A DNA stretch of 64,000 nt from IMG/VR virus record IMGVR_UViG_3300032373_000001. One strand, written 5' to 3'. Of this stretch, positions 1 through 24,667 are shown piece by piece (position 1 is the first letter of the stretch; every line of letters begins with the position of its first letter). Both the position numbers and the translations under genes were made by a program. Source of the stretch: a virus (taxonomy: Duplodnaviria; Caudoviricetes). The notes beneath the pieces are model-generated. The model did no database searches and was not told where the DNA came from. It was given only the letters and a program-made list of their open reading frames with translations.

Positions 1-514
1 GGGCGAAGGCGTCGGCGAGGACAGCACCGCTGATCGGAGCGACGACCGGGATGTCGGGGTTCTCACCACCGGCGATCGAGTCGAAGCCTGAGGTCGCGAT
101 CGCGTCGAGAACGGCGAACACACGCTCATCCTCAGCAGCCTGGATCTGAGCCTGGGCCAGGTCCTGGGCGCGCTCGATGAGATCGAAACGGCGCTCCTTG
201 ATCTGGGTCAGGGGGATCTCAGGGTTCGATGCGATCTCGAACAGCGGGAAGATGACACGGCGGGGCTTGGTGATGGCGACGATGTTCTCGCCTTCCTCGC
301 CGACCACGTAGGCCGTGACATCGGGGTCCTTGTCGTAGATCGGCAGAGCGCCGTCCGGCAGCTGCTCGACCAGGAAGGTCTTGCGGCCGACGGCCATGTA
401 GTCGCGGCGCAGGCGCAGCGGCTGGGTCATGGAGGCGGCGAGCTTCGCGCGACCGGCTTGGGTGTTGAGGTGCGCCTTGATGAGGCGGGCCTTGACGTCG
501 TTGGAAACGGGCAT
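1..514 (-). CDS. Major capsid protein, N-terminal part (runs off the left edge; not in the ORF track)
   Basis: Manual translation from ATG at 514 (RBS GAGGAGG upstream): MPVSNDVKARLIKAHLNTQAGRAKLAASMTQPLRLRRDYMAVGRKTFLVEQLPDGALPIYDKDPDVTAYVVGEEG...FEIASNPEIPLTQIKERRFDLIERAQ..., open to position 2. Resembles HK97-fold capsids of large myoviruses; follows protease-scaffold-decoration genes; strong codon bias. Confidence 0.85.
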   Translation of the reverse strand, partial: MPVSNDVKARLIKAHLNTQAGRAKLAASMTQPLRLRRDYMAVGRKTFLVEQLPDGALPIYDKDPDVTAYVVGEEGENIVAITKPRRVIFPLFEIASNPEIPLTQIKERRFDLIERAQDLAQAQIQAAEDERVFAVLDAIATSGFDSIAGGENPDIPVVAPISGAVLADAFA

Positions 515-1386: not shown

Positions 1387-2580
1387 TCACTGGAAGTGGC
1401 TGGTCACGTCCGGAGCCGACTGCCAGAGCTGGCTGAGGTCCATGTCACCCTCGGCCGAAGCCTCCTTGGTGACAGTGCCCAGCGTGGACGGGCCGGTCGA
1501 AGCCTTCTTGGGCTGCGGCTTGAGGTCGAGCTCGGAGGCTTCCTTGGCCTGCTCGTCGGCGAGACGGGAGACCTCATCGCCCTGGAGCTGGGCCAGGAGC
1601 GAGCGCTCCTCCTCATCGAGTGCCATGATGTTCATGGGGTCCATGTCCATCTCGACCTCCTCTTCCTCGTAGAAGGAAGAGGGCTCGTTCTGGTCCATGC
1701 CGACATCTTCCACGGCCTCGGGCTCCATCATGCCCTCTTCGCGCATCATCTCCATGTACATGGCTTCGTAGTCGTCGCCTCCCATGGGCTCACCGCAGGC
1801 TGCCTGAGAGGCCATGCCCTCTTCGTCGCAGGCCTTCTTCTTGGCCTCCTCGTCGACCTCGACCTCGACCTCCTCCTCATCGCTGTCGTCATCGCTGTCG
1901 TCATCGCTGTCGTCATCGCTGTCGTCGTCATCATCCTCATCGCCCTCATCGTCATCCTCGGCGAGGCGCATGAGGATGCGCTCCAGGCGGGCGACGCGGG
2001 ACTCGGTGTCGTCTTCGGCAGCGAAGCGGGTCAGGACGCGCTCCAGCGTCGCGATGCGGCCTTCCAGGGAAGCCTGCTTCTCTGACTCCTCCACCCCCTC
2101 AGCCTTGTGCTCGACCTCCTCCTGGATGGTCTCAGCGGCCTCAGCCTCAGCCTTCTCTTCCTTCTCGGTGCCCGCGGCCTTGTCCTCGGCCTGCTTGTTG
2201 AGGTTCTCGAGGCTGGTGAAGATGTGGGACTCGGGCAGGTCCATGAACAGGCTGGCTTGCCTCTCGACCTTCATCACGTCGGCGTCGGTGGAGGGCTCGC
2301 CCAACATCGCCGTGGCGAGGCGCAGGCAGAGGTTGGCCTTCTCGATGGCAGCCATCTTGGAAGCCGGGTGGTCGTGGCCCTCATTCGGGACAGCGGGTGC
2401 AGGTCCGTTCGGGTACGGGCCGGGGTGCGGGTCCTCAGCCCAGGAGCTGGGGTCGCCGTTCTCGTACTTGTCAGCCTCGGGGTCGGGCTGAGAGTGAGCG
2501 GGCGATGCCGGTCCTTCGTTGGGCACGGCGGGAGCCGCCGAGCTCTTCTTGTTGTTCCAGGTCAGTCGTTGACGAGCCAT
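1387..2580 (-). CDS. Putative capsid scaffolding protein (highly acidic)
   Basis: About 397 aa, very D/E-rich, helical repeats (RIATLERVL/RVARLERIL), between the protease and capsid genes; many K/R-x-A-S motifs. Confidence 0.7.
   Translation of the reverse strand: MARQRLTWNNKKSSAAPAVPNEGPASPAHSQPDPEADKYENGDPSSWAEDPHPGPYPNGPAPAVPNEGHDHPASKMAAIEKANLCLRLATAMLGEPSTDADVMKVERQASLFMDLPESHIFTSLENLNKQAEDKAAGTEKEEKAEAEAAETIQEEVEHKAEGVEESEKQASLEGRIATLERVLTRFAAEDDTESRVARLERILMRLAEDDDEGDEDDDDDSDDDSDDDSDDDSDEEEVEVEVDEEAKKKACDEEGMASQAACGEPMGGDDYEAMYMEMMREEGMMEPEAVEDVGMDQNEPSSFYEEEEVEMDMDPMNIMALDEEERSLLAQLQGDEVSRLADEQAKEASELDLKPQPKKASTGPSTLGTVTKEASAEGDMDLSQLWQSAPDVTSHFQ
1879..1926. repeat. 12-bp tandem repeat x4 (ATCGCTGTCGTC) encoding DDSD repeats in the scaffold
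   Basis: Four exact copies read directly from the sequence. Confidence 0.9.
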
Positions 2581-2592
2581 CACGAACTCCTC

Positions 2593-4047
2593 TTAGAGGG
2601 TTTGCGGGTTGTTGTTGCGCTCCCACTTGGAGAGCAAGGAGCCGACCCGGACAACAACCCGGAGTTCGGCAGAGGAAAGCTCCCTCCCCGCCGCGCGCAG
2701 GATGGCGCGCTTGTAGTCTTGCGGGGAAGTGTAGCGAACCGGGGAACCGACCTTCAGCGCCACCCGGTAGGGTGCGGGGTCGGTCGGGATGCCGTAGGCT
2801 TGGTTCAGGGTGGCGACCCCTTCCACCAAAGCCACTTGGGAAGAGGCGGTGCGGGTCAGCAGGTCCATGCTGACATGGTACGCCTTGCGAGCAAGTCGGG
2901 CACCAGCCTCTCGCTGAATCGAATCGTTGGGCTGGAATGTGACCTCCGAGTCTGCCTCGGACGCCTCATCTTCCCTCAAGTCCTCATCGATGCGGTCGTG
3001 GACCTTGTCCTTGACCTTCTCGTAGACCTTCTCGGTGAGGTCTTCGAAAGGCTTCTTCGGCTCTTCGCCCTTCGGCGCATCGCCCCCTTCCTCGTCGTCG
3101 TCCTCGAAGTCGAACGCCTTGCAGAACTTGGGGAGGGTGAGGTTGGCAGCCTTGCTCATGGCGGTGTCGGACCAGCCGGTGGGGGCCTGGGCCAGAACAT
3201 CCCGCAGAGCCTTCTTGACCTGAGCGGGAGGGAGGTCACCTGCATCGATCAGGTTGCGCATGACCGCCCCAGGGAAAGCCGGGACCTTGACCCAGCTGGC
3301 CTCGATGAAGTTCACGCCGCCCGGAGCGTCAGGGTTGTCCTTGTAGTCGATGTGGCCGCAGAGCTCTGCAACGACGCGCTTCTGTTGGCGCTCGTCCAAG
3401 AAGCTATTGAGCTTGCTGATCTTGATGTGGTCGCAGAGGTCCGTCTCATCGACCGCGACATGGCCGCACTGAGAGCAGATGGTGAAGTCTGTGGTACAGC
3501 CCATGCTGAGGGTGCCCATGACCCCAGCCCTGATGTCGCGGACCAGGGTCTCGTGCTTCCGGTCGGTGGCGACCAGAATGTCGATGTAGACCGAATCCCC
3601 GATGTCGCGGGCGACCGCATCCAGGATGCGACCCTTACTCTGGGCCTCGATCTGGACGTGCTCTTGGAAGTTGTGGCCCGCGATGAAGGTGGGGTAGCTC
3701 GCCGTCAGGACCGGACGGCTCCAGCAGTCGCCGTTGTTGTTGACGAACTGAGCCGACTTGTCGGTGATGTAGAAGTCGCCCCAACGACGGTCGATGGTCC
3801 GGGACCCGACCCGGACCCGACCCAGCTTGGCGTTGGGGGCCTGCTCAGTATCCACCGAAGCCACGATGGTGCAGTGAGTGAACAGGTACTTGTCGGGGTC
3901 CAGGCTGCCGCCCAAAATCTCCCTCGCCTGATCTGTCAAGTTGCGGTTGCTCGCACCCGAGGTTGCAGCGGTGCGCGTTCGGCTCCACTGGCGACGACTC
4001 ACGTAGGGGTGAACCACCATGGCATTGGCTTTCTTCGAGTGAGCCAT
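2593..4047 (-). CDS. Prohead maturation protease (HK97/assemblin-like) with C-terminal extension
   Basis: Motifs NNNGDCW, FIAGHNFQEH (His), GTLSMGC (Ser), Cys cluster CSQCGH...CDH, then FIEASWV.VPAF; position upstream of scaffold and capsid genes. Confidence 0.75.
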   Translation of the reverse strand: MAHSKKANAMVVHPYVSRRQWSRTRTAATSGASNRNLTDQAREILGGSLDPDKYLFTHCTIVASVDTEQAPNAKLGRVRVGSRTIDRRWGDFYITDKSAQFVNNNGDCWSRPVLTASYPTFIAGHNFQEHVQIEAQSKGRILDAVARDIGDSVYIDILVATDRKHETLVRDIRAGVMGTLSMGCTTDFTICSQCGHVAVDETDLCDHIKISKLNSFLDERQQKRVVAELCGHIDYKDNPDAPGGVNFIEASWVKVPAFPGAVMRNLIDAGDLPPAQVKKALRDVLAQAPTGWSDTAMSKAANLTLPKFCKAFDFEDDDEEGGDAPKGEEPKKPFEDLTEKVYEKVKDKVHDRIDEDLREDEASEADSEVTFQPNDSIQREAGARLARKAYHVSMDLLTRTASSQVALVEGVATLNQAYGIPTDPAPYRVALKVGSPVRYTSPQDYKRAILRAAGRELSSAELRVVVRVGSLLSKWERNNNPQTL

Positions 4048-4604
4048 CAGAGCCCTCCTTCGTCCACGCAGTCCGGGTCGAGCGCCGGGGCGTTGTGGGG
4101 GTGGTTCACGATGTCGTCAGTCTTGACGAGAAACATGCAGTTCGGGCAACCCATGAGGCGAGTGCTCTTGCCGTCCCGCCTCTTGTAGATGGCCTTCTTG
4201 AGGGGGGAATTCGGACCACAACGAGGACAACAGGGGCGACCGTCCGACAACTCGTTCTTCGTCATCCGGTAGCGGCGGTCGCATTCCACCCAGTACATCG
4301 CGCGAACACCTCGACCGGACCCTCCTGCGGGGACACGAACGGTCGGGGTTCCGCCTGGTGTTGAGTTGATTCGGGTGGGGATCACGTTGCCATTCTCATC
4401 GAAGTGCTGAAGGTCCTCCGCAGGAAAGCGGCGGTTGCCCGAGCCAGGGAACTCTACGTCCACCATGCCGATGGCAGGATAAACTGCAGTGACGGTGCCA
4501 GTCATGCTTTGAACGAAGCCGAACGGAGCCGCACGGTCCCCGACCGAGAACTCACGCCCTCGCTCTTGGTAGTCGACGTAATCCGCTGCGGCTTGCCGGG
4601 TCAT
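4047..4604 (-). CDS. Hypothetical protein with C-terminal zinc ribbon
   Basis: CCPRC...CPNC; RBS GAGGAG before ATG 4604; TGATG coupling to the protease gene. Confidence 0.6.
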   Translation of the reverse strand: MTRQAAADYVDYQERGREFSVGDRAAPFGFVQSMTGTVTAVYPAIGMVDVEFPGSGNRRFPAEDLQHFDENGNVIPTRINSTPGGTPTVRVPAGGSGRGVRAMYWVECDRRYRMTKNELSDGRPCCPRCGPNSPLKKAIYKRRDGKSTRLMGCPNCMFLVKTDDIVNHPHNAPALDPDCVDEGGL

Positions 4605-4609
4605 GAAGG

Positions 4610-5008
4610 TCACTCCTCGAAGAGGTTGAGTCCCAGGGCGGCGAACTTGGAGCCGAGGTCTTCGAGGGTGTTGCCCTCAACACGCTCCAACAGCTCCCCG
4701 CTCTCCTCGCCGTCGAAGGTGGCCATGTACGGCTCGTCGGCATCGTGCTCCAGCGGGGGCTGAACCTCAGCGATCTGGTTGGGGTCCCAACCACCGTTGG
4801 AAGCAGAGGCATCCTTGGTCTCGATCGGGAAGTTGCGGGCCGCAACCTTCTCGACGTGATCGCTGAGCAGATCCAGGCGCGTCTGCATGTCGCGTGCAAC
4901 CTTGGTGTCGATCTCCAAGACCTCGCTGGCCTCCTGGAGGAGGTCAGCGACCCGGTCGAAGAGGGCAGTGACATTGAGGGCACCCTTGCGGGTCAGCTTG
5001 TTGGCCAT
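4610..5008 (-). CDS. Hypothetical head-region protein
   Basis: 132 aa, RBS AGGAGG; carries a WDPNQI...DADEPYM motif also found in 39842-41023. Confidence 0.65.
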   Translation of the reverse strand: MANKLTRKGALNVTALFDRVADLLQEASEVLEIDTKVARDMQTRLDLLSDHVEKVAARNFPIETKDASASNGGWDPNQIAEVQPPLEHDADEPYMATFDGEESGELLERVEGNTLEDLGSKFAALGLNLFEE

Positions 5009-5060
5009 CAGGGCCTCCTGCAGATTAAGATGCTACACCAGGACACAAATAAGTGTCCTG

Positions 5061-5088: not shown

Positions 5089-8000
5089 TCAATTCCGGTG
5101 CAAATCGGACGCTTGCTTGCCGGTGGCAGTGATGAGGTTCTTCAGGTACTCCTGAACCCAATCGAGGAAGGCACGCTTAGACCGCAACTCTGTCATCTTG
5201 CGTTTAGGGGCAGCTTTGGCCCGCGCTTTCTTGGCAGCCCTCTTGTGGTCAGCGACCACTGCTTCGCGGCCGACCTCTTTGGTCACCGCCGGGTCCAAGA
5301 ACGCGGTCTCAGCCTGCATCAAGTCGATGAGGTGCTGCCGGATCTCATTGCGGTCCTCGTCGCTGAGGTAGCCTGAGCGGTCGGGGTCGGTGAGGAACTG
5401 AACCAGGGAGGCACCCGGATGGTCTTCCGGCAAGAGATCTTCCAAGTCTTGGTCCGTCAGATCCTCGTAGATGCTGCGCATCATGCGCTGGTCTGCCAGA
5501 CCCGAGCCACCGTACATGGAGAGGCCAGCCAACTTGTCCAGGGACCCAGCTTTATCTGCTGCCTGAACCAAGCGTGCCATAGAGCTGGCAACGCCCGTAG
5601 CCTTGTCCCCGTCTTGGATGGCGCTGGCCATCCCGATCCCACGCTGGATCGCCTCAAGGTGGTCCCGTTGGGCACTGTCCTCGGGAAGACCCTCAATCTT
5701 CTCTTCGACCCTTTCCCAGTGTCGCTGACGGGTATCCGCATCCAGCTTCTTGTAGGAAGAGACCGCGCTCAAGGCACGCTCCGCAGCAGCCTTCTTGCTC
5801 TCCTCGGAAGAAGCCTCACCCTTCGGAGGAAGCGGGTCTTCCAAGTCTACTGCGGGGTTGTCCAGCACGTTTTCGTAGTAGGCCATAAGCGCCAGGTTCT
5901 CCGCCAAGGTGGTGGGGTCCTTCACCGAACCTTTCTGGACCTGATCCGTCATATCCTTCAGGGCTTCCAGCAGCCGAGAACTGTCGGGGATGGCCTCTCG
6001 AACCAGCGAGGAGGACGCAGTACTGAACTGCTCCTTGAACTCCTCATACTGATCCGCCCCGAAAGAGTCCAAGACCTCGCGAGTCTTGTCGCGGGAGTCC
6101 TCGGGAACCCCCCTCAGTGCCCTGGTGGTGTACTTCTTCCGCTCCGTAAAATAGCGGTCCAGGGAGACCTCCGAGCTCTCATCCTCTTTCGGCTTGTCCG
6201 CCGAGGGAGCCTCTTTCTCGGGAGCCGCCTCATTCTGCTGGCGGAGCTTCTCTTGCTGAGACTCAGGCAGGGAACCGAACTCGACCTTGTTCCCGGTCTC
6301 TTCGGAGGTGTACTCCTTGCCCTCTGCCCAGTCAGGAACCTTCGCTGCCATACGAGCTACCCTGGCAGCGCTGGGCATGCGAGGGTAGCTTCGATCAAAA
6401 GGGTCGGGGGTCGGGACCCCCGAGGCCCGCTGTTCGCACTGACGCGACCGGATGCGGGTCTCATGTAGACCCGCATCCTTGTAGTTCTGGGAGCGGTCTT
6501 TCTTGTCCTGCTTCTCGTCGGGATCCTGATCTCCGTCGGTGTCGACCTTGCGGTTCCGGAGGTCCATGCGAGGAGGCTTCTTCTTGGGGGACTGCTGTAC
6601 CAGTTTCTCAGCTTCCCGGTCGTCCTTCTCCCCCTCGCTGAGAGTCGACTGCTTGAACCAGACTGCGGAGAGCTGACCCGACAAGGATGCCTTGACCTTC
6701 TTGCCCTTGTTCCGCTTCTCGTTGACCCACCGCCAGAACTGACCGATGGGCATGGTGGAGATCTCACCCTCCTTGAAGTATCCGGGCTTAGAGTACTGGT
6801 TCTTGTAGGCCCCGATGGCCTCCTCGACCGAGTTGAACCCCAGCATCACCTTGTCTTCATCGTACTTCCCGTCCCAAGGGTTGTGCTGATGAACCACGAC
6901 CACCAGAGAGCTGTCGTGGTTATCGCCCACATACACGTCGAGCTTGTCGCCGTCCGTACCCTCGGTGCCCCGGATCTCCCCGTAGTGGCAGATCATCTTG
7001 ACGGACCAGGGCTCCCCGTCAGGGTCCGTGCCGGAGCGGGTGCTGCCCTTCTTGTTCTCCACGTCGATCTTGACGCCCTGGAAGTCGATGAAGCCTTCGA
7101 AAGGATACTCTTTCCGCTTGGCCTTGGGGGGGAGGACCTTGACCGGGTGGAAGTTATGGGGAGACTCGACCAACTTCTGGTTGGTCGAGGCGAACTTCAC
7201 CGTATAGCCAGCAATCTGACGGGTCAGGTCCCCCACGCGATAGCTGAGGAGCTGAGCCTCTTCGTTGTCCCAGAGGTCCCGCACGTCTTCAGCAAGGTCA
7301 TCGATGCGGCGGAACAAGCGGATAAACCCGAGACCCGGCAGGGCGGGTCGCTTGCCGCTGCGGGGCTTGATGTAGCCCTCTACGACCTCCCGGAACTGTC
7401 GGTGGAGGTCGTAGAGCTTCCGGGATGCCCGGTGTGCCCCTTCTACGGCAGCCTCTGCGGCCAGCGCCTTGGTAACCGTGCTCAGATCTTCAACCTGCTG
7501 ATGGAAGGGCGACCGGATCTTGAGCGGGAACACGTCTGCAAGTTTGAGGGTCGCGAACCTCCAAGCACGCGGTCGGGCCGACCCCTTGCGCACGGACTCC
7601 ACGTGACGCATGAACTTCAGAAACTTAAAGCTCAGCGACTGAAGCTCCCAACTCGGCCAAAGCTCCGACGCCTCGTAGAGTGCCTCATCAGCCTCTTTCA
7701 TCTTCCCCAAGAAGTAGTCCCACTTGGGTTCCACGAGCGGGTTCTTGCGGGACTGCTTCATAGAGGGCTCGATGCCATCGATGAACGCGGAAGACATCTT
7801 TGCGTAGGCCCGGCCCAGCAGGGCTTCAGCGGCCTGAGCTCCAGGGTCATCCCTGAACTTGGTGCGCGACCCATGGCTGAATGCAGCGATGCGCGCCATG
7901 AGGTTGTAGGATTCCTTGTAGAGCGGGAAATACCGCCACGCCGGGTCAGCGTATCGGGGGCGCTCCTGGCCCGCATCCATGAGCTGGAGGTTGTCGTAGA

Positions 8001-9507
8001 CCCCCGAAAGCCCGGTCGCCTCCTTGGCGAGGCGGAGTTGGCAGCGGTTGTTCACGTCTACGATACGAGGGTTCTTGAGCTTGGTCGCATCGAACCACGC
8101 GGTGCTCTCGATCATCCAGCCCTCGACGAACGGGGCACCGCGCGCCGTGACGTGAACTCCGTCGTAGAAACCGGCGACCTCCGCCCAGTCGATGCGGATA
8201 TCGGAACCCTCTTCTTCGTAGTCATCCTGCTCAAAGGTCACTGGATCGAGGTAGGCGAACGGGTACACCAGCCCGAAGAGATAGTCCCTCTGAGAGTCGA
8301 TCACCAAGAGGTTCGCTGAAGGGGCCGGGTCCAGCAAGACCGCCTTCTCTCCGACCCACTCCGGCATCTCACCCTTACACCAGTCCAACCACGGAGAGAT
8401 GTTGCCCTTCAAGGTGCTGGTCCAGAACGCCTCGCGGGGCTTGAACCGGGCTACCTTCGGACTGAACATCTTCCGGAGGGTCTGGTACTGAAACTTCTGT
8501 CCGGGGCGGAGCAGGAAGACCTGAGTCCCGAGAGCCTTGGCTTGACGCTCCGAGGCGAACCGCTTCAGGAGCTCCCGGACCACCTGCTGACGGTATGCGG
8601 GCTCGGTGAGACCAGACTCCTTGACCTGCTGAGCCCAGACCCCAGCATCCTGCTCCAGCTTCGCCTGGGCATACTCCGAAAACCTGGCATAGCGCGTAGT
8701 CATAGAGGCTTCCTTGTCGAGCTTGTCCAACACCGTACCGTCCTGAAGGAAGCGGTCTACCATCCCAGGGACCAGGTACTGGCTTTTGAGCGTGCTGGCC
8801 TCATGGCCCACAGCTGCTGCCGCAATCTCCAGGGCATCGGCGAGCTCTTGCTTCAGGATAGGGTCCCGCTCTTTCCGGGGCGTGGGAAGCTCAGGACCAT
8901 CGCTGCGGATCTTCTTCAGGGCTGCACGCACCTCTTCGTTTGCGTGAAGACCCCGGAGGTCCTTGGCGGTGACCCCAAACTCCTTGAGGTAGTCGTTGAC
9001 CTCGGAGGCAGTGATGGAGCAATCCGCACCCTCGCAGAGCACCTTGTCGTCTGAGCCTTTGCCGTCGAGCGCCTTCTTCAGCGCCCCTACCAGGGCACCG
9101 TCTTCGACGGTTTTGTCGTGCTTGACGCCACTCTTCCCCACGTACTTGAAGGTGGCCTTGTTGCCCTCCACCGTGACGTGCTTCTTCAACCAGCCAGTGA
9201 CCCCGAAGTGCCCATCCTTGGCCGACTCCGGATTGCCCACCCTCTCGTAGGTGTTGTCGATGAGGGCCACAGCCAAGGCCGTAAGGCGCTTCTGAGGGTC
9301 AGAAGCGGAGAGGTCCTTCTTGTACTTCGACCGGAGCTTGCCGATGCTCTTGCGGAGCTTTTCGACGCGCTTGGCCTTGGCCTTGTTCCGATTGGACTGC
9401 TGGATGGGGCCGTACTCGTACACGGTCGTCTTCCCCGAGCCGTCTACCTTGTCGACCTCTTTCTTGTTCTTGTACTTGGCCAGGACCCGGCTCGGATCAA
9501 GTTTCAC
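5089..9507 (-). CDS. Giant multidomain protein: type IB topoisomerase, ART-like domain, inorganic pyrophosphatase-like domain and unknown domains
   Basis: Probable GTG start at 9507 (GTGA overlap). TopoIB pentad: YERVGN (R), GKSGV (K), KDLRG (R), GH-x8-Y (H,Y). InPase-like ENKKGSTRSG...HYGEI.GT.G.DGDKLDVYVG...YDEDKVMLGF. FWTS...YDGVH...WMIES domain is ART-like by inference. Confidence 0.8.
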   Translation of the reverse strand: MKLDPSRVLAKYKNKKEVDKVDGSGKTTVYEYGPIQQSNRNKAKAKRVEKLRKSIGKLRSKYKKDLSASDPQKRLTALAVALIDNTYERVGNPESAKDGHFGVTGWLKKHVTVEGNKATFKYVGKSGVKHDKTVEDGALVGALKKALDGKGSDDKVLCEGADCSITASEVNDYLKEFGVTAKDLRGLHANEEVRAALKKIRSDGPELPTPRKERDPILKQELADALEIAAAAVGHEASTLKSQYLVPGMVDRFLQDGTVLDKLDKEASMTTRYARFSEYAQAKLEQDAGVWAQQVKESGLTEPAYRQQVVRELLKRFASERQAKALGTQVFLLRPGQKFQYQTLRKMFSPKVARFKPREAFWTSTLKGNISPWLDWCKGEMPEWVGEKAVLLDPAPSANLLVIDSQRDYLFGLVYPFAYLDPVTFEQDDYEEEGSDIRIDWAEVAGFYDGVHVTARGAPFVEGWMIESTAWFDATKLKNPRIVDVNNRCQLRLAKEATGLSGVYDNLQLMDAGQERPRYADPAWRYFPLYKESYNLMARIAAFSHGSRTKFRDDPGAQAAEALLGRAYAKMSSAFIDGIEPSMKQSRKNPLVEPKWDYFLGKMKEADEALYEASELWPSWELQSLSFKFLKFMRHVESVRKGSARPRAWRFATLKLADVFPLKIRSPFHQQVEDLSTVTKALAAEAAVEGAHRASRKLYDLHRQFREVVEGYIKPRSGKRPALPGLGFIRLFRRIDDLAEDVRDLWDNEEAQLLSYRVGDLTRQIAGYTVKFASTNQKLVESPHNFHPVKVLPPKAKRKEYPFEGFIDFQGVKIDVENKKGSTRSGTDPDGEPWSVKMICHYGEIRGTEGTDGDKLDVYVGDNHDSSLVVVVHQHNPWDGKYDEDKVMLGFNSVEEAIGAYKNQYSKPGYFKEGEISTMPIGQFWRWVNEKRNKGKKVKASLSGQLSAVWFKQSTLSEGEKDDREAEKLVQQSPKKKPPRMDLRNRKVDTDGDQDPDEKQDKKDRSQNYKDAGLHETRIRSRQCEQRASGVPTPDPFDRSYPRMPSAARVARMAAKVPDWAEGKEYTSEETGNKVEFGSLPESQQEKLRQQNEAAPEKEAPSADKPKEDESSEVSLDRYFTERKKYTTRALRGVPEDSRDKTREVLDSFGADQYEEFKEQFSTASSSLVREAIPDSSRLLEALKDMTDQVQKGSVKDPTTLAENLALMAYYENVLDNPAVDLEDPLPPKGEASSEESKKAAAERALSAVSSYKKLDADTRQRHWERVEEKIEGLPEDSAQRDHLEAIQRGIGMASAIQDGDKATGVASSMARLVQAADKAGSLDKLAGLSMYGGSGLADQRMMRSIYEDLTDQDLEDLLPEDHPGASLVQFLTDPDRSGYLSDEDRNEIRQHLIDLMQAETAFLDPAVTKEVGREAVVADHKRAAKKARAKAAPKRKMTELRSKRAFLDWVQEYLKNLITATGKQASDLHRN

Positions 9508-12500
9508 AGCTGACTCCAACGGAGGGACAACTCTCGCATTGCCTGAATGCTGGCGAGACGCCCGGCATCTTGAAGGGGGGTATTCGGGGGCAAGTACCCA
9601 GGACTCGAACCGAGCGGGATGTTCTCTGGGGCACCCATGCCCCAGATCTGGACGCTGTTGAAGTCCCAGGAGCCCCGGGGAGCCTCCAACCTCACTTCCT
9701 CACCTACAGGCACGTAGGCGATCGTGACGTGGGGATTCCAGCGGGGGAACGAATCCTTGACCTCGAACCCCGCCTCTTCGAGCCGTGCGCGGAGCCCATC
9801 TCTGGCCCGATTGAGGTCGCGACTGAACCGGACCCTGCTGAAGATGACCTTTTGCTCAGGGCTCAAGAAGCGGTCCAGCCCTCTCAGGGCAGCCCGGACC
9901 GGGCCGCGGACCTCACTGAACGCCTGGGTGCAGACAACCTTGAAATCTTCCTCTCGCCCCTCGGGGACCTGACCCACGTACAGGAGGGTGATGTGGGCCG
10001 GGGATGGGTCCTCACTCTTGGTCGGGTACTGAGCCGCCAACCCCTCCGGGAGGGGAATGAACAGGCCCACAGAAGTGCCCGTGGGAGGGACCACCGCAGC
10101 AGCCTGGGCGGAAGCCGTTCGGCTCTGAGGGGCGGAGGCTCGCCGGGACATAAAAGTGTGACCCCTTTCCCGGCCCGTCTCGACGAACCCGCGACGCTTC
10201 AGCATGCGAATCGCGTGAGGGTTGACTGCATCCAGGCAGAAATCCAAATCCTCGAAGGCTTCAGAGATTGCATCGTACTCGTCGATGGCATAGTCCATGA
10301 GCTTGGCCCCGAGGCCCTGCTTTTGCCTGTCGGGGCGGACTGCGATGTCGAAGGAGTAGCAGTCGTTGCTAACCTCGTCGAACAGTACCGCGACCAGCTC
10401 CCCGCCGACCATGAGCCCTGCCTTGAAGTCCTTGCCGCTGAAGATGTTGATGCCCGCTTGCTTGGCGATCTCCCAAGGGTCCGGGCCATCCCACGGAACC
10501 TCGAAGACCCACTCGACCCGATTGCTGAGCTTCAGGGCCTTTTCCTCGCCGCCTGCTGCCAAGATAAGGACACCGTCCTCTTCTTTGAGCACATCACCCT
10601 CGAACCGGGCTCCCTGAGCCGTGGTCCAAGCGACCTTGGTCTGCTGGGTCCACTTCTCCCCATCGGTATCTCGTCCAGCCTCCAGCGCGCCGAGATAGAA
10701 CCAGTGCTCTTCGATGCTGGCACGATCTGCGCCGCGAGGCAGGGCAGCCGTAGACGCCCCGTAGTCGGGTTCGGTGACCAGCTCCCAGGTGTTGGAGTAG
10801 AGGACCGGGACGCCCGCAGCGTCTTCTTTCGACTGGCCGATCGTCGGGTGGATGCTCGCAGTACGACTCATGCCCGCCCCCTTGGGCTGAGGAGAACCAT
10901 TCGCATACAACCGGGAACCCCGAACATAGCGCACCAGGTCCTGTTCTCCCAGCTGATAGGGGGTGTTGCTCAAGAGACTCATGGCCTGGGCCTTGGTCAT
11001 CAGCTTCGGACCCTTCAGGACGACGTCCTGATTCCAGGTGACCTCTTCCGAATAGGAGGGCTTGGGCATGGTGTCGGTCCGGAACCGGATTGCAACGACC
11101 GGACCCTCATCCTTGTCGATGTGGGTAGTCTGGGTCCCCGGGACGTAGTCTCCCCACACCAACGAGATGGCATACACGGCATAGCCGCCGAACTTCTTGA
11201 TTCCGGGCGGGTCAAGCAAGAGCTTCTTGGAGCGGAGAATAGAGGCAGCACGCTTGGCGGTGGTGAAGTGGACGAACTCATCCGACGCCAAGTTCATCTC
11301 ATAGACGCGGCCTTCCATGAAGGTGGTCTCGCTCGTGGGCGTCGGACCCGCAGAGCCCACCTTAACCTTCATGGTATCTCCAGTCCACTCCCCACCCTTT
11401 TCCTTGTACCACTTGGCAGCCCACCCTTGATGGAATCGGACAGGCATCTTGGGGTGCTTATCTTGGGCCGACCTCAGCGCCTCGGCCCAGAGGGCTGCAT
11501 TCTCGGGCTTGCCGAAGTCCCCCTCAAAGAACTCCCTTGAACCCTTGAACCAAGCCGCCCGAAGCTGGCGAGACGCAGCGCTGGAGAACAGGCCCGCCAC
11601 AGCCTTGTAGGCTTCCCCGATCGCCTTCCTGTACTTGCCCTGAGCAGAGGCTCCGGCCCGCTTCAGGTCATAGAAGAACGCAAGCGGATAGGTCCGGGTG
11701 TCGTGCCGGCGCTGGCCCACCATGATGCGGAAAGCTGCTGCCCGTTCCTCTATCGGGAGGGCTTCCAACCCCTCCCGCATACGCTCAATAGCGTCCGGCA
11801 ACTTGGTGTAGAACTCCCGGTCGTCCAGCGAATGCTGCGATCGGTTTTGGCCCTGCTGGCGGATGTCCGGGGTGCGGATCTTCTTGCCGGGGAGGCCCGC
11901 CTGGATCTTGTCGGAGGCGAATCCCGCCAGAGTGCTCAGGAGGTTCTGGGCATAGTGGCGCATCTCGTGCTGAAGGGCCTGCTGGATCCACTTGGCGTTG
12001 ACCTTCGGGCTAACCTCGACCTCTATGACGGCGGTGCGCGGGTCGAACTCGGCCGAGCGACGACCTCTGGTGTCGCTGAGTATCAGATTCACCCCAGGCT
12101 TCTTGGCACTCCGAAGGATGTCACGCTTCATATTCTCGATGTAGGCGAGCATGTAGTCCGGGATCGGACCTTCCGGGGGCTGGAGCTTCTTCAGGAGGTC
12201 AGCGTTTTCCTTCTCGATCAGCTCCTCAAGGCGGTCCCCGTACTTCCAACCCTTGAGGTCTGCTTCGAACCTCTTCTGAACCGGCCCGCTCAACACCACG
12301 GCTTCTGGGTGGAGCTTGCTGAGCCGTTCCCACTCCTCCCATGCAGAGTTGTCGGAGCCCATGCCTTGGGCCACGCCCTTGTCCATACGGGTTTTAGCCC
12401 AAGAAGCGACGGCCCAGCGATACATCTCGTCCAACATCGCCGGAGGAGCTTCGAGCAGACCTGCCTGCTTCGATGCAACGAAACGGTCAGGGATACCCAC

Positions 12501-14897
12501 GGGCCGGGTAGCAGCGGCGCACTTTTCAGAAGAGATCCTGACCGTCGGGAGAACCTGCCGCAACATCCCCAGGATCATATCCGGAACAGCCTTGGGGCCG
12601 AAGGCAACAAGTTTCCCCAACGCTTCACAGAAGGACTCCTCGGGGTTCTTGTTGGCGTACCCGCTGATAGGTAGCCCCGGAACGCGGACCACGGGGGGCC
12701 CGCCCCCTTCCAGATAGTCCCGGATGTCCTCTGCTGAGTCGAGGCCCTGACTCGACGCGGGGCCGTACTCCAAGGCAGAGAGTTGGAGGTGTAGGATAGG
12801 GTCCGCCTTCTTCAAGGCACTATCGATGACCCAAGAGGCACCCACAGATTCCATCTTCCGAAGAGCCCGGCGGAGGTCCAAGTCCTTGGAGGTCCCCCGA
12901 ATGAGTCCCCCCCAAGTCTTCCGGGCATCTCCGGAGAGCACCGTCTGGTAAAGGTGATGGCCCATCTCATGGGCCATCACCCAGACAAACCTGCGGATGT
13001 CCGAGCCGAGCTCCCAAGGGGTGACGTGGATCATCCCCCTCTCATAGTAGGCCCCTGCGCTGCTGGGGACCCCCGCCTCAAAATTCCACTGAATGTGGAC
13101 CGGGACCATACGTTGGAGAATGATGGGGGCGGTTTGTTGGGAACGCTCCCGAAAGAGGGCCAAGCCCTGCCGAACGATCGGGAGTTTGTCTTGGTACGGG
13201 GAGTCTTCGAAGCCTCGGAACACCACGCGGAACCCCGAGAGGCTCACGACCTCTTCCTCCGGGACCAGAAAGGGGATCGGCTCCTGACCGCCGCGCAGAC
13301 TCGCAGACCACTCTGCCAAATCCCCAAGCACCGACCACGACTTGCGCGCCTTTGCCCGGATGCGGTTGGCCCACTTTCGGGCTTCGTCTTTCCACTTGCC
13401 CAGAGCTTCCACTTCGGCTTCCTGCCGGGACCAGAGCGGACGGCGCGTCAAGTAGGACCGAGTCTGAGCCTCTGCGTCCTCTCGAGAGGACGCATATCCC
13501 CGGTCCAAGTAGAACCGGACGAGCTCTTCAAACAGTTCCTCTGGGGGTCGCCAAGGGTTCCCCGAGGAATCCTTCACCGGAATTTGAGAAGAGGGGACCC
13601 TGCCCACCTCATAGGCGAACTCCCACATCGGCTTGAGTGCTCGATCCAAGAAGGCGCGGGCATCTTGAACATTCGCAGGGGAAGTCCTCCCAGGATACTG
13701 GGAGGAGCGGATGCGGCCTTCCAAGTCCTGGCGGACAGTAGCCGTGAAGGAATCGAAGTGCTCCCGCCAACGGTTGACGGCAGCAGATACCTCCTGGGCC
13801 TGAGAGATGCTTTGAACGCGGTCAGCGGCCTTGGCCAGGGCCAAGATGTCTTTCCGAAACCTCTGGATAAGGTTCTCGTCCAGCACTTCCTTGCGGGCAG
13901 TCTTCCCCGGCCCCTTCTTGTCAGCGGCTTCCATCTGCTGGAGGATCTTCTTGACCCAAGCGAGCCCAGGGTCACCGCCCCACAGGAGCCAAGAGACGTA
14001 CCCCTTGTCGTTCCAGGGCTCGCCCTTGTGCTCTTCGGAAATGCCCTTGTTCTTCTGGTGCCGACTGAAGAAGCCGTGCATCTGCTTGATGGTGTCGGGG
14101 GCGATGTTGTCGCGGTTCTTCAGGTTGACAGCGCGCTGAACGCCGGACCCGATGCCCTCTTTGCCAGCTTCCTCGGAAGTCAGACCGCCCTTGTTCGAAG
14201 GGGACGCCTTCTGACGATACTCCAAACCCTTCTCCGCAGCTTTCGCGACCGACTCCGGAGGCTGGAAGTTGATGCCCTTGTATTTCTCCGGCACAGCCGA
14301 CCGAAAGCTAAGGGCCTGCTTGAACCTGCGTGGACTCAAAAGGGAGGCTGCGCGGGGGAAAGCAAACCGCACCGGATCCTGACTGACTCGAACAGGGAGG
14401 TCAAGACCAACATCCCTCAAGAGGGTGGAGGCCCTCGAGACCCCGCCAGCCGAAGGGACCAGGAGCCCCATCATTGCCCCGCTAACCTTGACCGGGGCAT
14501 ATTCCCGCTTGGAGACCCACTCCCCCTCATCCTTTTTCCAGAGGAAGGAGTCGAGCATCGCCTGCCCCTGAGCCTCCTCGACGCACTCTTCATCCTCCTC
14601 GCCCCACTCCTCGTCGTAGCAGCCATCAGGGATTTGGAACTGCTCATACCAACCCTCCCCCGCGATGTAGTCTGCGTGAACGGGGTGCTCCTCGGCCCAA
14701 CGCTCTGTGTATTCCACGGGAATTAGCTGGCTCCGGAGCTTAGAGGCATCCAGCACCAAGCACACATCCCGATGACTGATGTCACCGCTGAACAGAGGCT
14801 TCACCGAGAAGCTCAAGAAGGGTGCGGGACTCTTCATGACCCCCGAACGAAGAATCTTGAGCGCGTTGGACCAAGAAGTGGTGTGGTAGAGATTCAA
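9504..14897 (-). CDS. Giant multidomain (polyvalent-type) protein: two ART-like domains, two zincin metallopeptidases, GNAT acetyltransferase, 2H phosphoesterase
   Basis: N-terminal YHTT...LSFS...EGEW; PPESVAKAA...WLLWGGD head-associated domain; HEMGH...YANKNPEESFCE; HEMRH...EFY; FVHFTT...SEEV; GNAT RQKQGLGAKLM...LKRRGF; 2H motifs HITL and HVTI. Confidence 0.8.
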   Translation of the reverse strand: MNLYHTTSWSNALKILRSGVMKSPAPFLSFSVKPLFSGDISHRDVCLVLDASKLRSQLIPVEYTERWAEEHPVHADYIAGEGWYEQFQIPDGCYDEEWGEEDEECVEEAQGQAMLDSFLWKKDEGEWVSKREYAPVKVSGAMMGLLVPSAGGVSRASTLLRDVGLDLPVRVSQDPVRFAFPRAASLLSPRRFKQALSFRSAVPEKYKGINFQPPESVAKAAEKGLEYRQKASPSNKGGLTSEEAGKEGIGSGVQRAVNLKNRDNIAPDTIKQMHGFFSRHQKNKGISEEHKGEPWNDKGYVSWLLWGGDPGLAWVKKILQQMEAADKKGPGKTARKEVLDENLIQRFRKDILALAKAADRVQSISQAQEVSAAVNRWREHFDSFTATVRQDLEGRIRSSQYPGRTSPANVQDARAFLDRALKPMWEFAYEVGRVPSSQIPVKDSSGNPWRPPEELFEELVRFYLDRGYASSREDAEAQTRSYLTRRPLWSRQEAEVEALGKWKDEARKWANRIRAKARKSWSVLGDLAEWSASLRGGQEPIPFLVPEEEVVSLSGFRVVFRGFEDSPYQDKLPIVRQGLALFRERSQQTAPIILQRMVPVHIQWNFEAGVPSSAGAYYERGMIHVTPWELGSDIRRFVWVMAHEMGHHLYQTVLSGDARKTWGGLIRGTSKDLDLRRALRKMESVGASWVIDSALKKADPILHLQLSALEYGPASSQGLDSAEDIRDYLEGGGPPVVRVPGLPISGYANKNPEESFCEALGKLVAFGPKAVPDMILGMLRQVLPTVRISSEKCAAATRPVGIPDRFVASKQAGLLEAPPAMLDEMYRWAVASWAKTRMDKGVAQGMGSDNSAWEEWERLSKLHPEAVVLSGPVQKRFEADLKGWKYGDRLEELIEKENADLLKKLQPPEGPIPDYMLAYIENMKRDILRSAKKPGVNLILSDTRGRRSAEFDPRTAVIEVEVSPKVNAKWIQQALQHEMRHYAQNLLSTLAGFASDKIQAGLPGKKIRTPDIRQQGQNRSQHSLDDREFYTKLPDAIERMREGLEALPIEERAAAFRIMVGQRRHDTRTYPLAFFYDLKRAGASAQGKYRKAIGEAYKAVAGLFSSAASRQLRAAWFKGSREFFEGDFGKPENAALWAEALRSAQDKHPKMPVRFHQGWAAKWYKEKGGEWTGDTMKVKVGSAGPTPTSETTFMEGRVYEMNLASDEFVHFTTAKRAASILRSKKLLLDPPGIKKFGGYAVYAISLVWGDYVPGTQTTHIDKDEGPVVAIRFRTDTMPKPSYSEEVTWNQDVVLKGPKLMTKAQAMSLLSNTPYQLGEQDLVRYVRGSRLYANGSPQPKGAGMSRTASIHPTIGQSKEDAAGVPVLYSNTWELVTEPDYGASTAALPRGADRASIEEHWFYLGALEAGRDTDGEKWTQQTKVAWTTAQGARFEGDVLKEEDGVLILAAGGEEKALKLSNRVEWVFEVPWDGPDPWEIAKQAGINIFSGKDFKAGLMVGGELVAVLFDEVSNDCYSFDIAVRPDRQKQGLGAKLMDYAIDEYDAISEAFEDLDFCLDAVNPHAIRMLKRRGFVETGRERGHTFMSRRASAPQSRTASAQAAAVVPPTGTSVGLFIPLPEGLAAQYPTKSEDPSPAHITLLYVGQVPEGREEDFKVVCTQAFSEVRGPVRAALRGLDRFLSPEQKVIFSRVRFSRDLNRARDGLRARLEEAGFEVKDSFPRWNPHVTIAYVPVGEEVRLEAPRGSWDFNSVQIWGMGAPENIPLGSSPGYLPPNTPLQDAGRLASIQAMRELSLRWSQL

Positions 14898-18038: not shown

Positions 18039-18063
18039 AATCTTCTCCTCAAAGCAGGAGGAA

Positions 18064-18079: not shown

Positions 18080-18098
18080 CTGGGAGACCCCGTCGGGA

Positions 18099-20588: not shown

Positions 20589-20596
20589 GGTTCCCC

Positions 20597-22151: not shown

Positions 22152-22490
22152 TCAGCCCTTCCCGTGCTCGTCCGAGGCCCCACGGACCGGCCACCGACCG
22201 CTTGCGCGGGACTCCGTCTCAGCGCTGAGGATCTTGTCCTCATTGATCTCCTCCAGAGCCTCCAGCTCCTCGACGAACCCCTTGATCAGGGACTGAGCTT
22301 CGGGGCTCGCGGGGTCCGTGTGGGGGAAGGCACCTTCGAGGGACTTGGTCACTGCCCGAACGACCCCGCGAGAGTAGAGCGCGACCTTGTCCAAGCTGGT
22401 CAGGATCGCCCTGCGGGTCTCGTCACCCTTCGGGAGAGAGCGAGCCAGCCGCACCAGAGCCTGTCGCTCCTGCTTCGAAATCCTTTTCAT
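22152..22490 (-). CDS. Small hypothetical protein
   Basis: 112 aa, RBS AGGAGG; leader ERQALVRLARSLPKGDETRRAILTSLDKVA. Confidence 0.6.
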   Translation of the reverse strand: MKRISKQERQALVRLARSLPKGDETRRAILTSLDKVALYSRGVVRAVTKSLEGAFPHTDPASPEAQSLIKGFVEELEALEEINEDKILSAETESRASGRWPVRGASDEHGKG

Positions 22491-24327
22491 CGGAGGTCCT
22501 CCTATCCAGAGTTGCCGATAAGGAAAGGATTGCTCTGGCGAGGGCCTCTATCGAGACAGTGTCGCCCGAAGCGGTCTTGAGGCTGGCGAAACGCCCTTGG
22601 CTCTCCTTGGGTTTGGCGTAGGTCAACCCCAAACCCTTCGCGAGCTGGGACACGACGTCGGAGTTCTCGACCAGCTGCCGTCCCGTGTCGCTATAGATGC
22701 CTCGCATCATCTCGTTGTATGTCGGATCGTTGACGGTCAGCCGGTCCCGCTCGACCTTCTCCCGCACAGCCACCGGATCGAGGTTCAGGAGCTCCAGGAT
22801 GGTGTCGATGTCCAGCGAGCCCTTCTGGTACAGGTTGTAGAGCGCGTCGAAGGTGTCCCGGTTGTCCCGCAGGGCAAGGCGGGTGAAGCTCAGGGAGGGG
22901 ACCAAGACAATCTTATCCCCGTCCTCGTCTTCCTCCACAAAGCCCATACGAGCACACATAGGACGCAAGAGGATTTCTTCCACCAGTTTCTGGAGCTGCT
23001 CTCGCAAGAGCATGTAGCGGGTGTTGATGGCCTCCAGGTTCACCCGGTCCCCGGAATAAGAGCCCTCTCCTGTCAGGAGGCTCTCCGTGATGCCCAGGCC
23101 CGCATACAACTGACGGTTGGTCAGCTCATACTCGCCGTCCAGGTTCAAGAGGCGCTGGTCTGCCCCCATTTCTTCCCAGCGGACCTCGAAGTTGGAGACG
23201 ATGGAATAATCCGGGTCCATCAGGGCCATATCGACCTGCTCCCGGAGGTCCTCCACGTCACCCAGGCTAAGATCTTCCCCGTACACAATGCGGATAGGGG
23301 TCATGTGCCGCGAGGCGATGGAGGTCTGAGCCTGACGGAGCTTGTCCCGATAGACCAGGGCTCGCATGCAGCACTGGAGGATCGAAGTCCCACGGGCCTC
23401 GTAGTCCGACTTCTTGTTGTAGAGGCAGTACACGAAGCTGCCAGCATACGGGTCCGTACCCAAGACCACGTTCCCACCCTTCCGGACCGCGTCGATCAGG
23501 TGGGGAGGCATGTCATCCACGACCTCCTTTGCCACCGGGTCTCCCGCTGCCGCCTGCTCGATGACCTTCTTGGTCTCGGAGTCCGGGAGCATCTCCACGA
23601 TCTTCTTGTCGGTGAAGTTAAACGTGCGGACCCTAATGTTCTCGGGGGGGAGGCAGACCAACTTGGTCCAGCCCTTGTAGTTCTTCTTCAGCCACTTGGC
23701 AGCGCGCTTGTCGGCGTCCTCGTACTTGATCCTCTTCTCTACAGCCTCACCATCTTCCGTCAAAACCCGCTGCGTGTAGTGAGTGATATCTTCCGGCATC
23801 TCCGGGTTCTTGTCCTCGCACCAGAGATACACCTCGCCGATGAGGTTGCGCTCACGGGTGATCGCCAAGAGCCGGTCCGTCAGGTCGATGCGCCGGACCC
23901 ATTTCTCACAGAAGCGCATCGCCGCCTCCGCCATCTTCCGATTCTTGGCGCGAGGGATTGCCAACCGTACCTTGCTGATCGGCAGGATGGAATGTAGGGA
24001 AATCGCCTGGCTGACGTAGGGTTCGTTCTTATCGAAGAAGCGGTAGTAGGCCCACTGCTCATGGAGGCTCTGGGGCAGCTCCAAGAAGTCCGTGGAGAGC
24101 TCCGGGGAGTAGAAGTTGCCTCCGGCTCCCATCACCGACCCGCCGTTGCCGAAGCCGCCTCCACCGTAGGATGCGGTCCGAGACTTCATCTGGCTGGAAA
24201 CCACCCGCCGAGGCGGGCCAGCCTTGGCCTTCTTCTTGCCGTCTCCGTTGGAGACCTTGTTGACCACCTGAGCATCATCTTCTTGCTGCTTGCCCAGCCG
24301 CTGGCCGAACCCCTTACGACGACCCAT
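22423..24327 (-). CDS. Portal protein
   Basis: YRFFDKNEPYVSQAISLH..., RERNLIGEVYLW, RGTSILQCCMRALVYRDKLRQAQ...IASRHMTPIRIV; near terminase; ATG 24327 with GAGGAG RBS. Confidence 0.8.
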   Translation of the reverse strand: MGRRKGFGQRLGKQQEDDAQVVNKVSNGDGKKKAKAGPPRRVVSSQMKSRTASYGGGGFGNGGSVMGAGGNFYSPELSTDFLELPQSLHEQWAYYRFFDKNEPYVSQAISLHSILPISKVRLAIPRAKNRKMAEAAMRFCEKWVRRIDLTDRLLAITRERNLIGEVYLWCEDKNPEMPEDITHYTQRVLTEDGEAVEKRIKYEDADKRAAKWLKKNYKGWTKLVCLPPENIRVRTFNFTDKKIVEMLPDSETKKVIEQAAAGDPVAKEVVDDMPPHLIDAVRKGGNVVLGTDPYAGSFVYCLYNKKSDYEARGTSILQCCMRALVYRDKLRQAQTSIASRHMTPIRIVYGEDLSLGDVEDLREQVDMALMDPDYSIVSNFEVRWEEMGADQRLLNLDGEYELTNRQLYAGLGITESLLTGEGSYSGDRVNLEAINTRYMLLREQLQKLVEEILLRPMCARMGFVEEDEDGDKIVLVPSLSFTRLALRDNRDTFDALYNLYQKGSLDIDTILELLNLDPVAVREKVERDRLTVNDPTYNEMMRGIYSDTGRQLVENSDVVSQLAKGLGLTYAKPKESQGRFASLKTASGDTVSIEALARAILSLSATLDRRTSDEKDFEAGATGSGAAGSLSPEG

Positions 24328-24667
24328 CTGCAATCTCCTCCGCCGCCTGCTGCTCAGCCGCCCTCAAGAGGGCTTCTTCTCGCTCCTGTCGGACCCGTTC
24401 TCGGAGCTGTTGCGCCAGCTCATCCTCGGTCATCTCGTCGGTTTCTCGAGGGCCATTGCTGTAGGGGCTCACCATGCTGGGAACGTCCTGGATCATCTCC
24501 AGGAGCCCCCGGAGGTGCCGCAGGGTCCTTCGCTTCCGCTGAGGAGGTACGCCTACGGCTTCTGAGGCAGAGCGGAGTGCAGCACGGACCTCGGACTCCG
24601 CTCGACGAAGGCGGATCAGGACCTCACGGTCTTCCGCGCTACTCTGGCGGATCCGGAAACGAGTCAT
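24314..24667 (-). CDS. Hypothetical protein
   Basis: 117 aa helical ORF, translationally coupled between terminase and portal. Confidence 0.55.
   Translation of the reverse strand: MTRFRIRQSSAEDREVLIRLRRAESEVRAALRSASEAVGVPPQRKRRTLRHLRGLLEMIQDVPSMVSPYSNGPRETDEMTEDELAQQLRERVRQEREEALLRAAEQQAAEEIADGSS

Follow-up and report, generated by a model that had tools for sequence, protein, structure and literature searches.

A topoisomerase-headed multidomain gene in a huge phage

The 64,000-nucleotide stretch of the IMG/VR virus record IMGVR_UViG_3300032373_000001 (Duplodnaviria; Caudoviricetes), hereafter 'the window', encodes on its minus strand a 1,472-residue multidomain protein (5089..9507) that begins with a compact type IB topoisomerase (TopIB) and lies amid head-morphogenesis genes. 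The topoisomerase is followed by an ART-like domain, an unassigned stretch, an inorganic pyrophosphatase (InPase), a charged motif and an all-helical C-terminal module. All genes of the window share the minus strand, and its G+C content is ~62%. A single open reading frame spans 5089..9519 and ends in a TGA stop codon at 5089-5091. The GTG at 9507 is the likely start, being preceded by GGAG 6 nt upstream and overlapping, as GTGA, with the TGA of the upstream gene. Residue numbers are counted from the TTG at 9519 throughout and have to be lowered by 4 for the GTG start. A programmed frameshift linking the upstream gene to the TopIB gene was considered and rejected, as the normal Shine-Dalgarno-GTG start and the GTGA coupling account for the overlap. 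A protein record of the identical 1,472 residues is present on a 410,989-bp contig, implying a huge (roughly 411 kb), uncultured phage; megablast of window positions 1-25000 against 50,697 phage records returned no match.

A compact type IB topoisomerase with a conserved catalytic pentad

The TopIB module, delimited by its PF01028 match, by alignments to structures 2f4q and 2h7f and by conservation of the catalytic pentad, covers residues 11-268 (8716..9489). Pfam PF01028 (Topoisom_I) matches residues 42-246 with an E-value of 1.6e-24 (87 bits; cut-off 23.7), and phmmer searches of the PDB returned the Deinococcus radiodurans TopIB 2f4q (E 1.8e-14) ahead of the variola virus enzyme 2h7f (1.6e-8), an archaeal TopIB (1.3e-7) and human Top1 (about 5e-4). 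No NCBIfam model matches the protein. A telomere resolvase or tyrosine recombinase was rejected as an identity for this module, given a match confined to the Topoisom_I model and TopIB structures and a pentad in TopIB order.

In the alignments, R93 (codon 9241-9243), K129 (9133-9135), R189 (8953-8955), H239 (8803-8805) and Y248 (8776-8778) correspond to R137, K174, R239, N280 and Y289 of 2f4q. The tyrosine nucleophile lies 9 residues past the histidine, and this H-x8-Y spacing equals that of poxviruses. An initial annotation of this DNA had reported an intact pentad with this spacing at about 8750-9400, and the alignments bear it out, with codons at 9243-8776. Across 221 aligned relatives the pentad is invariant save for one asparagine replacing the histidine, which fits a working enzyme; judged from these alignments, the topoisomerase looks catalytically intact and under strong purifying selection.

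Of the N-terminal beta-sheet domain for DNA binding, which takes up about 70-80 residues in the poxvirus and Deinococcus enzymes, about 30 residues are left here. Residue 27 aligns to residue 71 of 2f4q and residue 28 to residue 65 of 2h7f, and only the last strand of the domain, with its Y-x-Y-G motif, is retained. The isolated catalytic domain of the vaccinia enzyme stays active with weaker DNA binding, so a short N-terminal domain need not preclude catalysis. The enzyme commonly called the smallest topoisomerase is that of vaccinia (314 aa); at about 260 residues, the present module would be smaller. Every TopIB module of the family opens with S-x-RVAAKYK (here RVLAKYK, residues 11-17). As a side observation, an RVA-x-x-[YF]-like element recurs at module starts, namely at residues 11-17, 950-956 and about 1058 of P0001 (RVLAKYK, LSAVWFK and RVARMAAKV) and as LRAAWFK in P0002; it may belong to the fold, or serve as an exosite for a protease or as an address tag.

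Topoisomerase, charged motif and helical module form a conserved core

Searching a library of 1.84 billion proteins with the TopIB piece returned 3,224 matches, with 542 clusters at E<1e-30. The best 150 of these 542 were nearly all multidomain, mostly chains of 400-3,400 aa, in which TopIB is 55-69% identical and may occupy any position. The family resides on very long contigs (140-411 kb). Local profile searches covered 219 TopIB relatives, the pentad alignment 221, and BLAST searches for fusions 230 fetched relatives. Among deposited phage records, a close TopIB was found only in LR745208.1 (404414-405193, minus strand; 52.5% identity over 94% of the module), an unannotated 485-kb genome of an uncultured phage.

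Two further elements accompany the topoisomerase. The first is a charged motif of about 60 aa (residues 956-1016; 6472..6654), found in 183 of the 219 TopIB proteins, with the consensus r.ATKS..EkEDEEAERLVRpSPKKKPPRxDLRRrRVD.D.D.DPD..DKDLSLNYKD. The second, present in 123 of them, is the all-helical C-terminal module of 387 aa (residues 1090-1476; 5092..6252), which carries a KQAS 9 residues from its end. AlphaFold modeled it with about 19 helices (pLDDT 89.3, pTM 0.85). Fold searches with this model found no relative: Foldseek against the PDB gave E >= 0.39, the atlas TM <= 0.34, and VIA Z <= 7.0 on helical pieces of 60-80 residues, below the quoted noise level for helical models.

The order was always TopIB, charged motif, C-terminal module. 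About half of the proteins have the motif directly next to the topoisomerase; in the protein at hand, three cassettes—the ART-like, unassigned and InPase domains—are inserted exactly between the two. Split versions also occur, the C-terminal unit then being the next gene after the TopIB gene and bearing the charged motif at its N-terminus. For instance, locus L005 encodes a 989-aa 2H-TopIB-InPase protein followed by a 617-aa C-terminal protein, and L006 is split likewise. Shifting gene borders under a constant module order are what one would expect if the products end up cut into modules in any case. Separately, the L006 topoisomerase (8355-12673) is itself interrupted within the domain and spread over two called genes (556 aa and 890 aa) that overlap, likely owing to an assembly frameshift or a real one.

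The relatives carry partner domains of more than 12 other types, among them PolyA_pol, PAP2, 2H, GNAT, ART-PolyVal, LPD1, NUDIX, Ham1, RNA ligase, superoxide dismutase and carbonic anhydrase, with cassettes placed before or after the topoisomerase. Judging by this comparison across relatives, TopIB, charged motif and helical module are the conserved core of a large family, into which other enzymes are inserted as cassettes; this core is previously undescribed, and no paper on TopIB as a phage head or polyvalent-protein domain was found in the searchable literature. The topoisomerase does stand at the front of the polyprotein, as initially annotated, but it is not merely the first bead on a string, given that it forms this core with the motif and the helical module.

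Exchangeable domains between the topoisomerase and the charged motif

The second domain (FWTS...YDGVH...ES; residues 324-498; 8026..8550), recognized by the motifs FLL-R-PG, F-W-T-S-T-L and W-M-I-E-S in alignment A1, is a discrete conserved unit with seven homologues; a search for stand-alone versions gave three short proteins only. Its AlphaFold model, built from a shallow alignment, is mediocre (pLDDT 65.5, pTM 0.67). Foldseek hits with this model were all at E >= 0.35, hence not significant, in a list dominated by ART-superfamily proteins. In an exhaustive VIA search, the best match was the MbcT/RES structure 6fkg (Z 7.5; 142 residues, 4.4 A), and nearly all further entries were ART folds: other RES proteins, ParT (Z 5.7), diphtheria-type toxins (6.1), PARP, AcrIF11 (3.7), DarT and the ART-like domain of the cyanophage A4 pre-ejectosome (9k3a_B, 5.1), the last being part of a phage ejection protein. 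The atlas shape search returned unnamed viral clusters at TM 0.66-0.71 and a RES cluster at 0.55, and language-model features gave AcrIF11 (0.86) and ART-PolyVal (0.84), which we treat as leads only. On the sequence level, no ART or RES Pfam model matches the protein at E<=0.1, and hhalign of alignment A1 against P0040, which carries ART-PolyVal, found nothing. An STS-like F-W-T-S-[TS] motif is conserved, and the glutamate of W-x-x-E-S occurs in six of eight homologues. Unlike in the ART superfamily, however, the arginine of the R-S-E triad is not conserved: the candidate catalytic residue (in FLLRPG) is found in only three of the eight. With nearly all structural matches being ART folds at modest scores, the model lends moderate support to an ART-like fold, the assignment already ventured in the initial annotation.

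The adjoining residues 503-774 (7198..8013), with an internal RFAT site (residues 654-657; 7549-7560), remain unassigned and may hold one or more domains. A single homologue was found for them (P0004, 87% identical); an atlas search yielded no usable match, and a PDB sequence search with residues 290-800 returned nothing. The third cassette is a polyvalent-type InPase (residues 808-932; 6724..7098), matching PF18823 over model positions 11-134 of 135 (E 2.4e-40; 137.9 bits, cut-off 26.8) and bearing the DGDKLDV signature, so that the suspected pyrophosphatase-like domain is confirmed. The PHROG families that it hits through this domain are labeled minor head protein, virion structural protein or DarB-like antirestriction.

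The gene lies in a conserved head-morphogenesis block

The window order runs from the large terminase subunit (TerL; 24664..26580, phrog_2 E 3.3e-23 and a weak PF03354 match) and the portal protein (22423..24333; phrog_16240 E 3.1e-24) through the cargo genes to a prohead (head maturation) protease, an acidic scaffold-like protein and the capsid protein. Between the portal and cargo genes lie six genes without annotation (14906-22147), and two small genes (4047-5008) separate the TopIB gene from the protease. The protease gene (2593..4047) belongs to the S77/S78 type: it matches phrog_18299 (E 2.8e-8), resembles Peptidase_S77 in atlas features (0.91) and Peptidase_S78 in shape (TM 0.51), and is 58% identical to the syntenic gene of locus L003; a PDB sequence search gave low-complexity noise only, and no NCBIfam model matched. 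The scaffold-like protein (1387..2583) contains a (DDSD)4 tract of acidic residues, two copies of a PAVPNEG segment, and seven [KR]-x-A-[ST] sites. It is followed by a gene for a 223-aa protein (528-1199) and by the N-terminal 171 aa of an HK97-fold major capsid protein that runs off the window (2..514; NF042927, 88.8 bits at a cut-off of 80) and is 88% identical to the L003 capsid protein carrying PF25209. PHROG and Pfam returned nothing for most small genes of the block.

This arrangement recurs beyond the window. Six of eight related loci, including L003, L004, L005, L008 and L009, keep the order TopIB gene, two small genes, ~475-aa protease, scaffold, ~225-aa protein and 290-aa capsid protein (PF25209); it is absent in L006 and L007. 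The TopIB gene thus belongs to the head-morphogenesis block, and its location in the head region, a further claim of the initial annotation, holds with TerL, portal, protease, scaffold and capsid genes flanking it.

The gene's immediate neighbors are linked to it as well. Upstream and translationally coupled lies the gene for a 1,797-aa putative cargo protein (9504..14897), which has a 2H phosphoesterase at its C-terminus and also contains a GNAT domain and two HExxH motifs (HEMGH and HEMRH); parts of it (200-800, 1200-1340 and 1600-1790) reappear within TopIB proteins of other phages. In 13 relatives (e.g. P0166 and P0194), local BLAST finds the downstream 132-aa gene (4610..5008) joined to the C-terminal end of the TopIB protein, a pattern of fusion and fission that, on sequence grounds, links the two proteins functionally. 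When the portal, scaffold, protease and 805-aa protein of the window were compared with the 230 relatives by BLAST, none of them turned up fused to TopIB.

Two side observations concern head genes. The capsid protein carries RAKLAAS at residues 21-27 (RRKLAAS in L003), where a maturation cut may remove a propeptide of about 26 aa. Homing elements lie in or beside head-module genes of the relatives (L003 18797-19750; L004 4616-7681; L005 13383-14216; L008 20029-21972), comprising a LAGLIDADG type after the capsid gene, a GIY-YIG type before the protease, and, in a 1,021-aa protein with a PF27249 (MJ0330_N) domain, an intein.

A recurrent motif at domain junctions

The strings KEAS, RFAS, RLAKEA, KFAS and KVKAS, proposed earlier as domain junctions, are all present. 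They sit at independently mapped domain borders and follow a motif, [KR]-x-A-S, that is enriched in head genes. Within the TopIB protein, [KR]-x-A-[ST] occurs six times against 2.5 expected, and four of these sites lie within 5 residues of borders mapped by homology (chance ~1e-5, a rough estimate). KEAS (residues 269-272; 8704..8715) marks the C-terminal border of TopIB. RFAS (320-323; 8551..8562) opens the ART-like domain, homology to P0005-7 beginning ~3 residues further on, and KEAT (499-502; 8014..8025) closes it, relatives' homology ending at about 495-500. KFAS (775-778; 7186..7197) opens the InPase unit, for which a BLAST match to P0047 starts at residue 777.

Per gene, the relaxed motif is found seven times in the scaffold (0.5 expected), five times in the 805-aa protein, three times each in a 205-aa protein and the portal, and six times in each of the two cargo proteins; most replication genes have none. 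The strict form [KR]xAS occurs 29 times in the head block (7,703 residues) versus 6.9 expected, an about four-fold excess (Poisson 2.8e-10), and 17 times in the remaining 12,042 residues of the window (head block versus rest, Fisher 0.0012). Family-wide, we counted 745 sites as opposed to 492 +/- 21 in shuffled sequences, with a peak at the C-terminal border of TopIB, where 81 of 219 proteins have [KR]xAS within -5 to +9, and few sites inside the helical module. On this analysis, [KR]-x-A-S is probably a prohead-protease cut site and thereby a candidate specificity for such an enzyme; the S77/S78-type protease encoded at 2593-4047 is the candidate for making the junction cuts.

Relation to known systems

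The protein shares with the phage-type polyvalent proteins of Iyer, Burroughs, Anand, de Souza and Aravind (2017) the joining of many unrelated enzyme domains in one polypeptide, the PF18823 InPase, and ART, 2H, GNAT, LPD1 and zincin partners in this locus or its relatives (PMC5512222). It combines at least two unrelated effector-type domains (TopIB, the ART-like fold and InPase), and these are shuffled among relatives. Polyvalent proteins have been proposed to be packaged and processed; TopIB is not listed in the 2017 catalogue, where 'topoisomerase' occurs once, in the title of a reference (PMC5512222). Unlike those proteins, the one described here has no MuF domain but a fixed TopIB-motif-helical core, and processing is proposed to proceed via the prohead protease at a shared motif rather than an embedded peptidase.

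Among topoisomerases, the D. radiodurans enzyme (2f4q/3m4a) is the best sequence match, with all catalytic positions aligned over residues 27-269. It differs in having asparagine at the fourth pentad position, as opposed to the histidine found here and in 220 of 221 relatives, and in being a stand-alone cellular protein with a full N-terminal domain. The poxvirus enzymes (vaccinia and variola; 2h7f and 1a41) are small, cofactor-free enzymes that share the R-K-R-H-Y pentad and H-x8-Y spacing of the phage module. Poxviruses carry TopIB in the virion for early transcription, which parallels our proposal, and are the textbook case of a virus with a type IB topoisomerase in its particle. In contrast to them, the phage protein has a reduced N-terminal domain, is a module within a 1,472-aa chain and serves in a bacterial host, with an E-value to the variola enzyme of just 1.6e-8. 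The poxvirus parallel drawn in the initial annotation consequently stands as an analogy of lifestyle, not as close kinship, for the best sequence match is a bacterial TopIB and the N-terminal domain is down to ~30 residues.

Stand-alone TopIB genes have been noted in a survey of jumbo phages, in Motura, NCTB, phiRSL1, Lu11 and PaBG (PMC7824862). Those of cultured jumbo phages (PaBG gp84, PhiXhv-15, Lu11 and phiRSL1) are set apart by an identity of 28-32% over about 170 residues and by their C-terminal position in 562-668-aa proteins without charged motif and helical module. The TopIB gene of PaBG is four genes away from that for the capsid protein, and PhiXhv-15 has its own near a head-tail connector gene. 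The protease described here shows no similarity to PaBG gp82, so that the PaBG neighborhood allows just a loose comparison; the two phages' capsid proteins are distant relatives (E 5e-8).

Two systems bear on the proposed cleavage. Prohead proteases of the phiKZ type cut at S/A/G-X-E, as opposed to [KR]-x-A-S, and those phages belong to an unrelated lineage. In phiKZ, 201phi2-1 and SPN3US, one such protease cuts the scaffold and many head-internal proteins, and the head carries ejected enzymes (PMC10052503, PMC7411985, PMC13282480), a motif-directed processing to which cutting at [KR]-x-A-S would be analogous; in the texts searched, no TopIB is reported among their head proteins. Herpesvirus assemblin and the S77/S78 prohead proteases of phages are regarded as one fold family, and assemblin cleavage sites read (V/L/I)-x-A|S. 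If the cut in [KR]-x-A-S falls between A and S, with P1 alanine and P1' serine, as we assume, the two sites would be alike at these positions and differ at P3, which is hydrophobic in assemblin sites and lysine or arginine here.

A capsid-internal cargo protein as the favored interpretation

The core architecture, the synteny with head genes, the varied fusion partners and the putative cut-site motif favor the view, to which we assign a probability of roughly 55%, that the protein travels as cargo inside the capsid of a huge phage and is a polyvalent protein of the phage type. We infer packaging, cleavage, ejection and topoisomerase activity as follows. The precursor would be built into the procapsid, probably anchored by its helical C-terminal unit. 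It would then be cut at [KR]-x-A-S into separate enzymes by the S77/S78-type prohead protease, as for the scaffold, and the cut pieces would exit the capsid along with the DNA. TopIB, which requires neither ATP nor Mg2+, would remove supercoils from the entering genome (or from host DNA) ahead of any phage gene expression; the initial annotation had suggested such a role on newly circularized DNA. The ART-like and InPase units would be directed at host targets or nucleotide pools. Consistent with this scenario, polyvalent-type InPase domains have been proposed to be packaged into virions, one being fused to a portal domain in BcepF1 (PMC5512222).

Several observations weigh against the cargo interpretation. 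Two of the eight related loci, L006 and L007, have no labeled capsid gene within 10 kb, and neither this protein nor the 230 fetched relatives contain a MuF or portal fusion. The junction motif is mildly over-represented outside the head block too (17 sites versus 8.2 expected), part of its family-wide excess is supplied by the conserved start of the charged motif itself, and it could be a linker inherited with the shuffled cassettes instead of a cut site. Furthermore, folded enzymes of 20-30 kDa must unfold to traverse the tail tube. For PaBG, gp84 is not among the several of the 14 gel-detected virion proteins that the study names in its text (PMC7412058).

A related proposition takes TopIB, charged motif and helical module to be a dedicated head-core machine of a large huge-phage lineage, acting on the phage genome as a cofactor-free swivel or in end handling while DNA of >150 kb is packaged or ejected, with the protease-site junctions as docking points at which any enzyme cassette can be inserted for delivery. 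We consider it rather unlikely. In a rival account that we judge unlikely, the packaged topoisomerase would act on the phage's own DNA inside the capsid or at its mouth; working as a swivel without cofactors, it would release the twist that builds up as the ~400-kb genome is pumped in or out, and the three core elements would be a structural unit of the head core, on which the other enzymes hitch-hike. The invariance of the core while the rest varies, the adjacency of its parts even when split, and the length of the family's contigs all suit a swivel, which could moreover work inside the capsid given its independence of ATP and Mg2+. Yet no fold relative of the helical module was found, nothing ties it to portal, DNA or capsid, and the junction site that parts TopIB from the remainder of the chain suggests release, not anchoring.

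We regard it as quite improbable that the protein stays outside the virion, serving as a late multi-enzyme protein for replication, transcription or nucleotide metabolism whose place in the head block reflects co-regulation and whose junction motif is a flexible linker. Such a role would accord with the relative P0108 of locus L007, which sits among non-structural genes, and with the stand-alone TopIB of some jumbo phages, listed together with DNA topology genes (PMC7824862). It is opposed by the synteny between portal and protease, scaffold and capsid genes in six of the eight loci, by the concentration of the motif in scaffold and head genes and its near absence from the window's replication genes, and by the cassette shuffling typical of polyvalent cargo. 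Very improbable, finally, is a role in handling genome ends—sitting covalently on the 3' end in the capsid and rejoining the 5'-OH after entry (a ligase-free circularization), or shielding ends from exonucleases—because only the known chemistry (a 3'-phosphotyrosyl intermediate and strand transfer to a 5'-OH acceptor) speaks for it, no sequence feature indicates end specificity, and the RecA/UvsX-like recombinase and RecD-like helicase of the window offer other routes to circularization.

If the cargo interpretation is correct, tailed phages with very large genomes would bring along, in an array of cargo cut by a protease, their own DNA-relaxing enzyme as well as interchangeable counter-defense enzymes. 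Such a counterpart of the poxvirus case, widespread among phages (542 clusters at E<1e-30), would be new. The fold-orphan helical module may be a capsid address or anchor, and the array could represent a natural scaffold with which to load phage heads with foreign proteins.

Further features of the window

Between the stop codon of the TopIB gene and the Shine-Dalgarno sequence and ATG of the next gene lies an inverted repeat (5039-5060, minus strand) with an 8-bp stem and a 6-nt loop (CAGGACAC-TTATTT-GTGTCCTG). Lacking a following T-run, it does not qualify as a canonical terminator and may instead be an element of RNA stability or processing. A gene for a PAS-PAS histidine kinase (HATPase_c; 29233-31221, minus strand) adjoins the phage packaging genes. 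Further along, a 1,729-aa protein (32870-38059, minus strand), for which a weak DUF2460 match was the sole hit, is possibly a tail or baseplate component.

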